15,180 bases of DNA from a virus (Duplodnaviria > Heunggongvirae > Uroviricota > Caudoviricetes), in IMG/VR virus record IMGVR_UViG_2563366825_000027, positions 1-15,180 of that record; one strand, written 5' to 3'. How positions within the stretch are numbered: the first letter of the stretch is position 1; each line of letters opens with the position of its first letter. Positions 3,001 to 6,000 of this stretch are shown here, piece after piece. Position numbers: made by a program.

Positions 3001-6000
3001 GCCATTATTCACGCTCCACACCGCATGCTGTCGTTTCGCTTATTTCCCTCGCGCACTTATGACACAGTTCCTTACGCTTAATAATGTGATAAGCACCACA
3101 TTCTGATTTTTTTTCGATGCATTAATAATATTAATCGTTTTCTGACATGCCGCTGCCATCCGCGTTCCGGAGCGTGTGACAGGCATCACTGAATATGCCT
3201 GGCGGTTATTGCAGAATCTGTTTCACAATAAAAAAACGATTGCTGTAATCCTCTATTGACGAAAGAGGGGGTGAGGTATCACCCCCGTTTTTTATTTACG
3301 ACTCCTGACCCACCTTATACGCCAGAATCTCATCCACACTGTTCAGCGCTTCCAGTGCCTTCTTCATGTTCCGCTGCCGTACGTGAATTTCCATCCCTTT
3401 GGTGAACATCGCCTTCTCCGCCGCCTCACTGAGTGCCATCAGCGCCTCTGCCGTCATCGGGACGTCGTTATTCTCCGCATCCGTCCAGAAAAAGCCCTCC
3501 GGCAGTATTCCCGCTTTCGCGGCAGCCACTGACGGCTCAAGACGCGCCTGTGTCTGTTTGCCGTAGTCCCATTTACGCCCATTGTGCTCAAACGTGTAGT
3601 TCGCCGCTTCCATCGCATTACGCCAGGCGTTGATCCCGGCGGTTTTGAGTTCTCTGGCTTTTTCCGGGCTGATGGATGGCTGTACATATTCTGCAATTTC
3701 ACCGGCCTCTCCTCTCAGACAAGCGGCATAAATATCCCGCCCGTATGCTTCGGTATCGCTGGCTGTTGCAGTGAAAGGAACCGCCTGCTCAATGTGCTCA
3801 AACTTCACCATGCAATTAACAGCAGTGTGATCTTTATCTGCCCATTGCGGATTGCTTATTTTTTTCCACATTCATGTCATCTCCTGTCTGTCAGTATGCG
3901 CGCTGGAACAGCCCGATGCCTTCATTGTCATTTGTCGACGTAATTTCATTACACACCATCCATGACCCCGGAACTGAGGATAGTCTGCCGTCAATGCCAT
4001 CGGTGTTAGCTTTCATATAGTTTCCGTTTTCGTCTTTGATTAGGGCGCATCGCTTAAGGCGTGAACCCGATACAGTTTCTCCTGGCTGATAGGTTCTGCC
4101 GATGTCGGTTATATACGGGCCTAGTGCGGCAATAATGTATGTTCCGATGCTGTAAATTTCCCCGGGTACCAGCCTTCCGGTTGGCCCTTGTGGTCCCTGT
4201 GGTCCCTGTGGTCCGGTTTTACCATCCAACCCGGGCGGTCCCATCGGCCCTCGCCCTCCGGCAGGGCCCTGTGGCCCCGGAACACCCTGCGCCCCCGCTG
4301 GTCCCCTTTCACCTCGTGGCCCTGCCGGACCTGCCTTACCTTCCGCTCCGGCGGCACCATCCTTTCCTGCGGGGCCTGTTGCTCCCGGTTCACCTTTTTC
4401 ACCTTTCGGCCCCGGTGGCCCCTGATCGCCTTTGGGTCCCGGCATACTGCTGCCTGATGCCCCAGCCTTCGCCACCTCTTCTGCACGCTGTTTCGCTGCA
4501 TTTGCCGCATCCATTGCTGCCTTCACCGCTTTCGGCGTGGCGGCCTTGTTTTCCTCAGCGCTGTCTGTGGCACTGCTCAACAGCACCACACCCTTCTGCG
4601 ATGTGCTGGCATCCGGAACACTGGCGACACTGCCTGCGGGACCCGCAGGACCTGCGGGGCCGGTTTCTCCCCGAGGGCCTGCGGGACCTGCCGGACCTGT
4701 TGCGCCGGGTTCACCTTTATCCCCTTTCGGGCCGGTTTGCCCTGCCGGACCCTGTGGTCCGGGTGGTCCGGGTGGTCCGGCCTCTCCACGTGGGCCGGTG
4801 TCACCTTTCGGCCCCGGCGGTCCGCCCGGGTCACCTTTATCGCCCTTCGGTCCCTGTGGACCTGTTTCTCCCCGTTCTCCCTTTGGCCCCGGCTCACCTT
4901 TTGGTCCGACCGCCCCCGTTGCCCCGGCTGGTCCCTGTGCCCCTGTGGCACCCTGTGGACCTGTGTCCCCCTTCTCGCCCGCCGGTCCCCGGGCATTCTC
5001 TGCCCGTTTCTTCGCTTCCTCTGCACTCGCCGCCGACGCTTCAGCACGCTTCAGGATTTCCGCTGCCACCGCTTCCAGCTCTGCAAGCGCTTTCGGGTAA
5101 TACTGCGCCTCATCCTGTTCCATCAGAAATTTATTCAGCGTTCCCGGCTCAGAATCCGCCTTCACCAGAATGTCACCCACATACGACGGGGCGTACCCTT
5201 CCGTGTTCAGCGTCACCCGGTACCACCCCGGCTCCACATCAAAACTGTAACTGCCGGTTTCCCCCGGCTGCCCCTGCGCCACCGTGGTGACTATCACTGT
5301 CTCCGTTGTGCGGCGCGCCTTCAGCTCTATCGTGCATCCCGGTACCGGCTTCCCGGCACCGTCCTTCAGCACCCCCGATATTCTGACTGTCATGGATTTC
5401 CCCCATAAAAAAACCGCAGTACCGGTTTCCCGGCCTGCGGTAAAATTTGTGGTTTGTTGATGTTAAAAAGGTGCCATCCGGCTGACCACCTTCAGCAACC
5501 GGTCGGCGGGGGATATTCTCCCCCGCCACGGTTTCTTACTGCTTACACTGTAAGAACGCCGCAATCTCCGCGCCCGCTATCCGGAACCGGAACTCGCACA
5601 GTGAACTGTGGGTGATCCAGATAATGAGCACTACCGTGATACAAATCACGGTGGTTTTTAACGGTTTTTGCGACATAACGCTTGCTCCTTTTACGGAGAG
5701 GCGCTAACCTTCCACTTGCGAAGAGAAGAAAGGCAGGCCTCGGGTTAAACATGAATGTTTGTCCGGGGCCTTCGTCTTTCCGGCCTTCAGGTGTTCCCTC
5801 CGGCCATCAGCCAAAGGCACCCGCGCATAATGTACGGTTTTTGTCTCCTTCCGGCAATCCCGGGGCGCGATGTTCAGCGGATACTGATCCCCGCGCTGTT
5901 TTTCTTCACCACTATCGCCTGAAGGTTACTGATACGTGAACTGCCAAAACTCCCGTTCTGACGCCGTGAACTTACGGTAAAACTCAGGGTGATATGACCA

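Follow-up and report, generated by a model that had tools for sequence, protein, structure and literature searches.

The window, by which we mean the whole 15,180-nt stretch of viral DNA analysed here, carries a gene for a small Hok-family membrane toxin on the minus strand of the gap between J and the side tail fibre gene, co-oriented with both of these genes. The coding sequence (5536..5676) was identified by ORF calling and by Pfam PF01848 (HOK_GEF), and encodes the 46-aa peptide MSQKPLKTTVICITVVLIIWITHSSLCEFRFRIAGAEIAAFLQCKQ. The Hok/Gef HMM search proposed along with the original prediction gave 43.5 bits on PF01848 over residues 10-44, against a cut-off of 22 (E 2.4e-11), and the Hok signatures read in the peptide are thereby above chance. 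The peptide conforms to the family pattern, which comprises some 50 aa and a hydrophobic helix at the N-terminus, and its residues C12, T14, L26-C27-E28 and E37 correspond to C16, T18, L30, C31, E32 and E41 of the published Hok logo. Two NCBIfam models scored below their cut-offs, the Hok subfamily model NF007279 with 37.2 bits against 73 and the HokA equivalog NF007290 with 38.2 bits against 89, which points to a divergent Hok cluster that receives its PGAP name at the Pfam level only. RefSeq holds the identical peptide as WP_000078852.1, 'Hok/Gef family protein', in the same J–hok–fibre position, and this, along with the Pfam match and the Rfam match given below, substantiates the proposal of a type I toxin locus of the Hok family in the gap that separates J from the side tail fibre.

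The hok gene is under purifying selection, with a median dN/dS of 0.25 over 340 pairs. A 2026 preprint (the Escalera-Maurer catalogue) includes in its toxicity-tested set the peptide 79_1563, which differs from the window peptide only in its final residue (Q to R). The only non-toxic homologues in that preprint are 19_179, 60_1482 and 69_1540, 79_1563 not being among them, and toxicity was measured there with an artificial Shine-Dalgarno sequence (SD) and promoter, not with the native leader. The 46-aa ORF is a genuine Hok/Gef toxin gene, and the exact peptide encoded in the window is predicted to be toxic.

The slot between J and the side tail fibre is what we take to be the position of lom in lambda, going by the lambda gene order. 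No Lom-sized gene was found in the gap (lambda Lom is an outer-membrane protein of about 200-250 aa); the largest ORFs there, of 96 and 85 aa, share sequence with the hok module or with the tail genes on either side. A tblastn search with phage Lom gave matches in the Stx-phage clade only, and none in the J–hok–fibre clade. We gathered related loci with alignment A1 as query, and across differing contexts the homology between loci runs from the hok promoter -35 to the terminator, the module spanning 452 bp (5857 to 5406). The module is more than 90% identical among loci, while the adjacent J C-terminus ranges from 44 to 100%. It is intact in loci of E. coli, Salmonella and E. albertii, homologues of the peptide are also present in Serratia and Yersinia, and tandem arrays occur, whereas only 33 plasmid records matched the module.

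For the hok promoter, the weak minus-strand candidate suggested earlier was found in place, with TTGCCG as -35 (5852..5857) and TACATT as -10 (5829..5834) separated by a 17-nt spacer. Both hexamers hold their position in related loci with unrelated upstream DNA, and the homology between differing contexts begins at the -35 hexamer itself. From the end of the -10 to G5822, the conserved and presumed 5' end of the mRNA, there are 6 nt, and most representative loci have TA[CGA]A[TAG]T at the -10 position, 6 nt before a conserved GGGUGCC; this layout parallels the TATGAT-N6-GGCGC of the R1-type locus. A strict consensus sigma-70 scan of 5350-5950 called no promoter and also missed the terminator at 5406-5441. 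As the scan criteria were too stringent, conservation and folding were used instead for promoters and terminator, and it should be noted that the predicted hok promoter, like the Sok promoter described below, is a weak match to the consensus.

The full-length hok mRNA would extend from +1 at G5822 to a 3' end within the U tract that follows the terminator (5406..5822, minus strand). Its leader (5822..5665, minus strand) matches Rfam RF01794, the hok/sok leader, over the full model (1-157) and in the hok-sense orientation, with 59.6 bits (E 2.4e-11), a borderline match at 0.6 bits over the gathering score of 59. The intrinsic terminator, previously placed at 5405-5441, was confirmed by folding on the minus strand at 5406..5441 (stem 5441-5413, U7 5412-5406; dG -21.6, z -4.45). 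It lies 13 nt before the tail-fibre ATG, and relatives have terminators of differing sequence in the same place. Just after the hok stop there is a further minus-strand hairpin (5497..5533; dG -27.7, z -6.25), with compensatory changes in 5 of 9 pairs. This extra hairpin had been noticed before and is real, but its earlier coordinates were 2 nt too low, the core arms being 5527-5519 and 5513-5505. That promoter, terminator and post-stop hairpin are all part of one hok mRNA unit is supported by these findings.

Folding of 5822..5400 gave an MFE of -190 kcal/mol (z -7.44) with a 5'-3' closure of 17 bp. In this structure a tac-like 5' element, GGGUGCCUUUGGCUGAU (5806..5822, minus strand), pairs with an fbi-like element about 340 nt away, GUCAGCCGGAUGGCACCU (5469..5486, minus strand), and the probability of the 5' element being unpaired is 0.03. 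The fold-back (tac/ucb-like) pairing that was to be checked is thus present, and it covaries: columns 10-13 of alignment A2 pair with columns 365-368 (helix 2) with compensatory changes in all four pairs, out of 11 pairs with such changes overall. In the predicted pairs 98.4% of cells pair, compared to 31-43% with the partners slid. The mRNA of R1 hok is likewise clamped between 5' tac and 3' fbi.

The expected SD of the 46-aa ORF, AAGGAG, was found at 5690-5685, 8 nt before the AUG. It is predicted to be sequestered in a local hairpin (5677..5705, minus strand), where the anti-SD CCUCUCC (5701-5695) and the GGAG of the SD (5688-5685) are MFE partners, and where pairing is kept via one-sided changes (helix 6 of A2). 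The median probability of the SD being unpaired was 0.0 among 62 lineage sequences, versus 0.75 among 47 HokW/HokD leaders. ViennaRNA folds of the full-length, the 3'-truncated and the Sok-blocked mRNA did not open the SD in any of the three; in the modelled 3'-truncated RNA the 5' end refolds locally and leaves the SD unchanged. As accessibility was the same across the modelled states, no activation switch is derivable by folding. Near the 5' end a conserved CGGAGGG (5802-5796) might be an SD mimic that pairs with the anti-SD and so frees the SD. This element and the anti-SD are both nearly invariant, and the sole variant, GGAAGG, is uncompensated.

A Sok-like antitoxin RNA had been expected but not located. 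Based on homology to the R1-type locus and on folding, we predict its promoter and U-rich end on the plus strand. The putative -35, TTGCTC (5682..5687), overlaps the hok SD of the opposite strand and aligns with TTGCGC of the R1-type locus; the putative -10, TAACCT (5705..5710), follows after 17 nt and aligns with TATCCT. The sense-strand GCAAG at the Sok -35 is conserved throughout the lineage, and AGG[TA]TAG in the -10 region is nearly invariant in 27-30 representatives. Leaders of the HokW cluster also have GGTTAG, and the hokW mRNA probe contains GGCTAACC. The predicted RNA of about 65 nt (5717..5781, plus strand) would have a single-stranded 5' tail of 11 nt (5717-5727), a hairpin (5728-5780) and a U-rich 3' end; its fold has a dG of -28.8 (z -4.55), and 23 relatives retain the hairpin, some of its pairs being compensatory. 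The target of the predicted 5' tail is a hypervariable segment of the hok leader (5714..5737, minus strand), where pairwise diversity, computed over 26 unique loci from the clade of the window itself, reaches 0.30, as against 0-0.03 over most of the module. One locus (L042) has three tandem copies of the module, each with a different tail. The hotspot coincides with the predicted Sok tail, a pattern expected of an RNA-RNA specificity determinant and not of a partnerless leader. We predict that the locus has a cis-antisense Sok which is transcribed from its own promoter in the leader and has an unpaired 5' tail followed by a hairpin.

The original prediction also described a mok/hok arrangement, in which an ORF of 69 codons (5543..5752, minus strand) was read as mok. 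In a canonical hok/mok/sok circuit, translation of 5752..5543 would open the hok SD and Sok would block the mok initiation region. The ORF does exist; as with R1 mok, its frame differs from that of the overlapping hok gene and closes 7 nt from the stop codon of hok, and its AUG falls within the stretch that the predicted Sok spans. However, this AUG has no SD and is located in the loop of a hairpin, no more than 4 of the 63 unique related loci retain the ORF, stop codons break it in two loci that are 95-96% identical to the window (L002 and L013), and indels that are not multiples of three shift the frame in the variable leader segment among relatives. We used a positional test for an SD and start (GAGG-N8-start) on the 63 lineage loci, with 47 HokW/HokD loci as controls. 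The canonical mok start, GAGG-N8-ATG, was present in 1 of the 63 and in 45 of the 47, as well as in the R1-type locus, and the window has no start codon at the site homologous to the mok SD and AUG of R1 and HokW/HokD. A search for ORFs in a frame other than that of hok, with a start 40 nt or more upstream, recovers mok in only 7 of 45 controls, as many control mok genes share the hok frame. With its conservation in 4 of 63 loci, no SD and no canonical start, the 69-codon ORF is rejected as mok and as a functional part of the locus, and a circuit run by its translation is very unlikely. Literature searches for mok-less hok and for other hok gene names found no relevant account, and in the Pas-sRNA preprint Sok figures only as a match to Rfam.

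In R1 the translation of mok is mandatory for Hok synthesis (PMC9841398), so that Hok translation could be abolished altogether where mok is lacking. The window would then hold a decaying relic that has lost mok, in which hok is locked behind its SD, is never translated natively and is carried passively with the tail genes; the full sequestration of the SD in local folds, which opens in no modelled state, speaks for this. Such decay is hard to reconcile with the purifying selection on hok, with compensatory changes that maintain the long-range helix and the post-stop hairpin, or with a diversifying Sok tail. Further, the module is intact in three kinds of host and has peptide homologues in two more, occurs in tandem arrays and stays alike beside diverging J C-termini, and lineage peptides are toxic when expressed in the 2026 preprint, there from an artificial SD and promoter. 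We regard a relic as quite unlikely. It might also be argued that the toxin lacks a working antitoxin RNA, Sok being untranscribed and hok being restrained by folding alone until late read-through makes Hok an accessory lysis or membrane factor. The Sok hexamers are indeed weak, and their conservation could reflect the hok SD and mRNA structure on the opposite strand; moreover, hok has the orientation of J and the tail fibre, and HokW aids lysis on induction (PMC8621323). Nevertheless, the R1-type Sok promoter uses the same hexamer positions, the probable sokW -10 region shares GGTTAG, and the diversity hotspot falls exactly on the predicted Sok tail, so we hold this explanation to be highly improbable.

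We conclude that 5857–5406 is most likely a self-contained hok/sok-type type I toxin-antitoxin module without mok, present as a moron in a lambdoid prophage of E. coli, where it fills the gap from J to the side tail fibre. Taking the canonical hok/sok mechanism from PMC9841398 and PMC8621323, a weak constitutive minus-strand promoter would give a hok mRNA of about 417 nt, whose tac-like 5' end would be clamped to the fbi-like 3' element. With the SD buried in its local hairpin and the AUG region paired with the 3' part of the hok coding sequence, the full-length mRNA would be translationally silent. From the plus-strand promoter, with its -35 over the hok SD, the Sok-like RNA would be made, its 11-nt tail and hairpin being complementary over their full length to the stretch of hok leader that lies 41 to 105 nt before the AUG of hok. 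Hok synthesis would follow when Sok disappears, possibly through prophage loss, host transcription shut-off or transcription interference by the late operon, and 3' processing of the mRNA probably takes part as well. The product, a peptide of 46 aa, would sit in the inner membrane and depolarise or kill the cell.

The lineage of 46-aa peptides of the form MSQK...AAFLQCKQ corresponds to clusters 72 and 79 in the 2026 catalogue and is almost entirely prophage-borne. Without a mok leader ORF, control in this lineage would act on the folding and stability of the hok mRNA and not on mok translation. We see about an even chance that the lineage is a natural mok-less hok/sok in which anti-SD gating, an upstream-acting Sok and a fast, insulating tail work jointly. 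A dedicated anti-SD hairpin would then gate Hok translation without any coupling to a leader ORF, and Sok would act 40 nt or more ahead of the ribosome-binding site of hok, either by duplex-triggered decay, presumably by RNase III, or by refolding. The Sok recognition tail of 11-20 nt would evolve fast, whereby copies sharing one genome, or even one phage, would be insulated from each other.

Genes for Hok are enriched in prophages. A prophage-borne hok/sok module is already known, and our finding mostly confirms existing annotation: the exact peptide is already annotated in RefSeq/PGAP, and its peptide cluster has been catalogued and tested. The earlier reading of the locus as hok/mok/sok is wrong, and a corrected mok assignment is added here, along with a full map of the module that comprises promoters, predicted transcript ends, the tac/fbi pairing and a predicted Sok. 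Only the proposed mok-less regulation and the predicted hypervariable Sok tail are modestly new. If mok-less regulation holds true experimentally, the textbook hok/mok/sok circuit would not be the sole mode of Hok control, and the lineage would lend itself, as a compact natural system, to work on how specific antitoxins are among co-resident paralogues.

Compared to hok/mok/sok (parB) of plasmid R1 and of R1-type IncF plasmids, the module shares a Hok-family peptide, the tac/fbi clamp and the order of post-stop hairpin, fbi and terminator; the R1-type hairpin just 3' of the hok stop, GGCGGGC...GCCCGCC, is equivalent to that of the window. The R1 Sok promoter occupies the site predicted here, with its -35 over the hok SD, and R1 Sok, of about 64 nt, has a free 5' tail and a hairpin as in our prediction. 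R1 Hok is 52 aa long as against 46 aa, with 33% peptide identity. Unlike R1, the window locus lacks a mok SD and AUG and a conserved overlapping ORF (R1 mok has 70 codons, the rejected ORF 69), its hok SD lies in a tighter local hairpin, and the module resides in the late operon of a prophage and not on a plasmid.

The type I systems tisB/istR-1, zorO/orzO (PMC3919570) and aapA1/IsoA1 (PMC5416894) also lack a leader ORF, have their SD sequestered by an anti-SD, and are likewise controlled through mRNA folding or processing, with the antitoxin pairing in the 5' UTR away from the ribosome-binding site. They are not known to be related to the present module in sequence or fold. Their antitoxins are mostly trans-encoded or divergent with short complementarity, whereas the Sok predicted here would be fully cis-antisense.

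The lom-adjacent Hok modules of Stx phages (933W, Sp5/VT2-Sakai and 75/02 Stx) belong to the same lineage, with 77% module DNA identity. Their 46-aa peptide, 72_1589 of the catalogue, ends in AAFLQCKQ, is 65% identical to that of the window and tested toxic in the 2026 preprint. They have the same leader architecture and tail-region moron slot, and the mok start is absent there too; but they lie directly downstream of lom and not directly after J, and differ in the Sok tail.

The hokW-sokW system of the Stx2 prophage Sp5 is another prophage-borne hok/sok, in which toxin and antisense antitoxin were shown experimentally, and where Sok is lost upon induction and the module aids phage release and lysis (PMC8621323). 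HokW belongs to a different Hok cluster, being a HokD-like peptide of 51 aa (MKQQKAM...) with another phage position and a canonical GAGG-N8-ATG mok start. We rejected an identity of the window locus with the published hokW, as the stretch of Sp5 with a match to the window does not contain the hokW start primer; the Sp5 ORF matching the window is a separate 46-aa peptide adjoining lom. Still, hokW-sokW gives the best indication available of the biological role, and by analogy with it the late-operon place just before the tail-fibre gene suggests that the module may have a role at induction or in prophage retention.

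The 46-aa ORF (5676..5536, minus strand) is present in the gap between J and the tail fibre exactly as originally predicted, and the strong SD claimed for it is AAGGAG, 8 nt upstream of the AUG. Its membership of the Hok/Gef family was confirmed (Pfam HOK_GEF, 43.5 bits with a cut-off of 22, E 2.4e-11). As it scores below the cut-offs of the narrower NCBIfam Hok models, the peptide belongs to a divergent Hok cluster. Altogether 270 complete genomes of E. coli match the 480-bp gap at a coverage of at least 80%, and in the best match (99.8% identical) the ORF carries the PGAP label "Hok/Gef family protein" (WP_000078852.1), is flanked by a remnant of J on one side and a tail-fibre gene on the other, and encodes our peptide without differences. 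The locus is also carried by phage 1720a-02 (96% identical), where the ORF is labelled hypothetical. A 2026 preprint catalogued Hok homologues, reported their enrichment in prophages and tested 45 representatives, of which only 19_179, 60_1482 and 69_1540 were non-toxic; its Table S2 holds our peptide with a terminal R for Q (79_1563) and likewise the Stx-phage paralogue (72_1589) (10.1101/2025.08.07.668861). The toxin call is correct. It is also already known, and the same is true of the gene, the family to which it belongs, its toxic effect and its link with prophages. Mok and Sok were explicitly left unanalysed in that preprint (10.1101/2025.08.07.668861). Our contributions are a full map of the module, the rejection of mok and the recognition of a lineage that lacks mok and has a hypervariable Sok tail; a limited literature search found no earlier description of this lineage. 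This enterobacterial hok module, with a typical leader and 63% peptide identity, is also present in two genome records whose titles name a Planococcaceae MAG and a Vagococcus sp. (L006 and L007), probably through contamination or mis-binning of enterobacterial contigs.

The module lies in the gap from 5394 to 5873, between J (5874..9341, minus strand; Pfam Ig_J, FNIII-A_GpJ and Phage-tail_3 domains) and the tail fibre (3891..5393, minus strand; phage_tail_N and four stretches of collagen repeats). Downstream of the fibre and its DUF4376 partner lies an ORF with a YadA anchor (1542-2816, minus strand). The window forms the tail end of an E. coli prophage that is lambdoid and mosaic, and complete genomes match at most 79% of it in one place. 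The J–fibre placement of the module is found in 31 related loci, and in 36 further loci, which make up the Stx-phage clade (933W, Sp5, 75/02 Stx), it directly follows lom; E. coli genomes have up to 7 matching places, and only 33 plasmid records match. Compared with the related loci L013, L019 and L030, the receptor-binding J C-terminus (5874-6500) is 44 to 100% identical and the module with the fibre N-terminus 88-96%, a pattern which points to recombination breakpoints at the -35 edge of the module. Further, tail genes L (13123-13827) and K (10262-10999) flank a P22 immI-like cassette (11054-13066), which contains an antirepressor gene (11054-11968, minus strand; Bro-N and P22_AR_C), an abutting sar RNA (11970-12036, plus strand; Rfam RF00262, 69.4 bits, gathering score 43), an Arc-like RHH ORF (12258-12530, plus strand) and a Clp-protease-like ORF (12530-13066, plus strand). 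An OmpC-like porin gene inside the tail operon (14017-15180, minus strand; Pfam Porin_1, 465 bits) is cut by the window end, and its counterparts in related prophages are named ompC by PGAP.

The minus-strand promoter proposed for hok (TTGCCG at 5857-5852, 17 nt spacer, TACATT at 5834-5829) ends 6 nt before G5822, where an end-to-end match to Rfam RF01794 begins (5822..5665, minus strand; 59.6 bits, just over the gathering score of 59). It should be noted that this model is named 'sok', yet runs in hok-sense orientation. In related loci with unrelated upstream DNA the homology starts at the -35 and a TA..AT-type -10 stays in position. The predicted fold of the 5822-5400 RNA has an energy of -190 kcal/mol (z -7.44), and the fold-back pairing raised in the original prediction was found between the first 17 nt of this RNA and 5469-5486, about 340 nt downstream. 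Genomes and IMG/VR yielded 89 related loci, which we condensed to 27 representatives, roughly 51-96% identical to the window; in their consensus structure 98.4% of cells were paired, against 31-43% with slid partners, and compensatory changes occurred at 11 pairs, among them all four in the 5'-3' helix extension and five in the post-stop hairpin. The fold-back pairing is hence present and evolutionarily supported. The predicted terminator also held (stem 5441-5413 followed by U7; dG -21.6, z -4.45). So did the extra hairpin (dG -27.7, z -6.25), though with its arms at 5505-5513 and 5519-5527, 2 nt higher than first placed. The order of hok stop, GC hairpin, fbi-like element and terminator is shared with an R1-type plasmid locus, and we therefore regard the hairpin and terminator as standard parts of hok mRNA. 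In local folds an invariant CCUCUCC fully sequesters the hok SD (median P(unpaired) 0.0, versus 0.75 in the HokW/HokD control cluster), and helices 7-8 join the region of the hok AUG to the 3' portion of the CDS. None of the modelled mRNA states opened the SD.

The 69-codon out-of-frame ORF is present (5752..5543, minus strand), but its reading as mok did not survive comparison, as the frame is kept in 4 of 63 unique loci. Its AUG has no SD and lies in the loop of the hairpin that Sok would target, and in L002 (95% identical) and L013 (96%) a stop codon ends the frame after about 10-14 codons. As a control we collected 80 loci of the HokW/HokD cluster, giving 47 unique sequences. In 45 of these, and in the R1-type locus, GAGG-N8-ATG precedes the hok AUG by 56-58 nt, matching the spacing of the R1 mok (nt 116-118) and hok (174-176) AUGs (PMC9841398). 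The target lineage retains the GAGG as part of a hairpin, with a start codon 4-12 nt downstream in one of 63 loci, and indels in the variable leader segment whose lengths are not divisible by three rule out a conserved mok frame. The rare survival of the ORF, the near absence of the start codon and these indels together indicate, at the level of sequence comparison, a lineage without mok. Since translation of mok up to the hok SD is mandatory in R1 (PMC9841398), this absence is a real architectural difference. In most HokW-type loci (L090-L169) the conserved mok ATG lies at -57 in the hok frame, which is open from -72 to the hok stop, and 'Mok' would there be Hok with an N-terminal extension and not the product of another frame; the mok frame relative to hok differs among close HokW-type relatives.

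Sok was left unlocated in the original prediction, and by R1-type alignment and folding we could place a candidate promoter and a U-rich end on the plus strand. The R1 antisense hexamers TTGCGC and TATCCT align with TTGCTC (5682-5687) and TAACCT (5705-5710), spaced by 17 nt; the candidate -35 overlaps the hok SD on the opposite strand, and AGG(T/A)TAG, the sense-strand complement of the -10 region, is nearly invariant across the lineage. The predicted Sok, from about 5717 to a U-rich stretch at about 5781, has an 11-nt free 5' tail and a long hairpin (dG -28.8, z -4.55) which is kept in relatives. R1 Sok has this architecture of free tail and hairpin. Within the window's own clade (26 unique loci) nearly all positions are invariant, with three exceptions: the segment 5714-5737, the predicted Sok tail and its target, where diversity peaks at 0.30; a lesser peak at 5767-5786, the Sok 3' tail, with two allelic forms; and the loop of the post-stop hairpin. 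One allele at 5767-5786, CCTTCGTCTTTC, was seen in the window, L013 and L042-type loci, and the other, CCTTT(T/C)CACATC, in most other lineage loci, where it yields a tiny AUG-UGA or an 8-codon uORF on the hok strand. The single phage contig L042 has three tandem hok/sok copies (hok starts at 2008, 2502 and 3001) with three different Sok tails, which fits a selection against cross-talk among copies that reside together. Such tandem arrays, of two or three complete modules at a distance of about 495 bp, were observed in L042, L044 and L048, each a single phage contig, the Sok 5' tail differing per copy and the remaining leader being similar.

A reading of the module as a relic was rejected, as hok has a median dN/dS of 0.25, the RNA helices of its mRNA are maintained through compensation, and the module stays >90% identical while the adjoining J C-terminus ranges from 44 to 100%. 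The working and role of the module we infer throughout. If it works like R1 and hokW-sokW, a short-lived Sok would restrain a hok mRNA that is stable and folded, and once Sok transcription stops Hok would be made and damage the inner membrane. The module has the orientation of the late operon and the fibre ATG is 13 nt downstream, so transcription of the late genes must pass its terminator and would run head-on into that of Sok. This position hints at a function during induction, like that of hokW, but the module may equally serve prophage retention or the exclusion of other phages. It should be noted that the Sp5 copy of the lineage is not the published hokW-sokW of the same prophage; the two are distinct loci, the toxin of hokW-sokW being a 51-aa HokD-like peptide.
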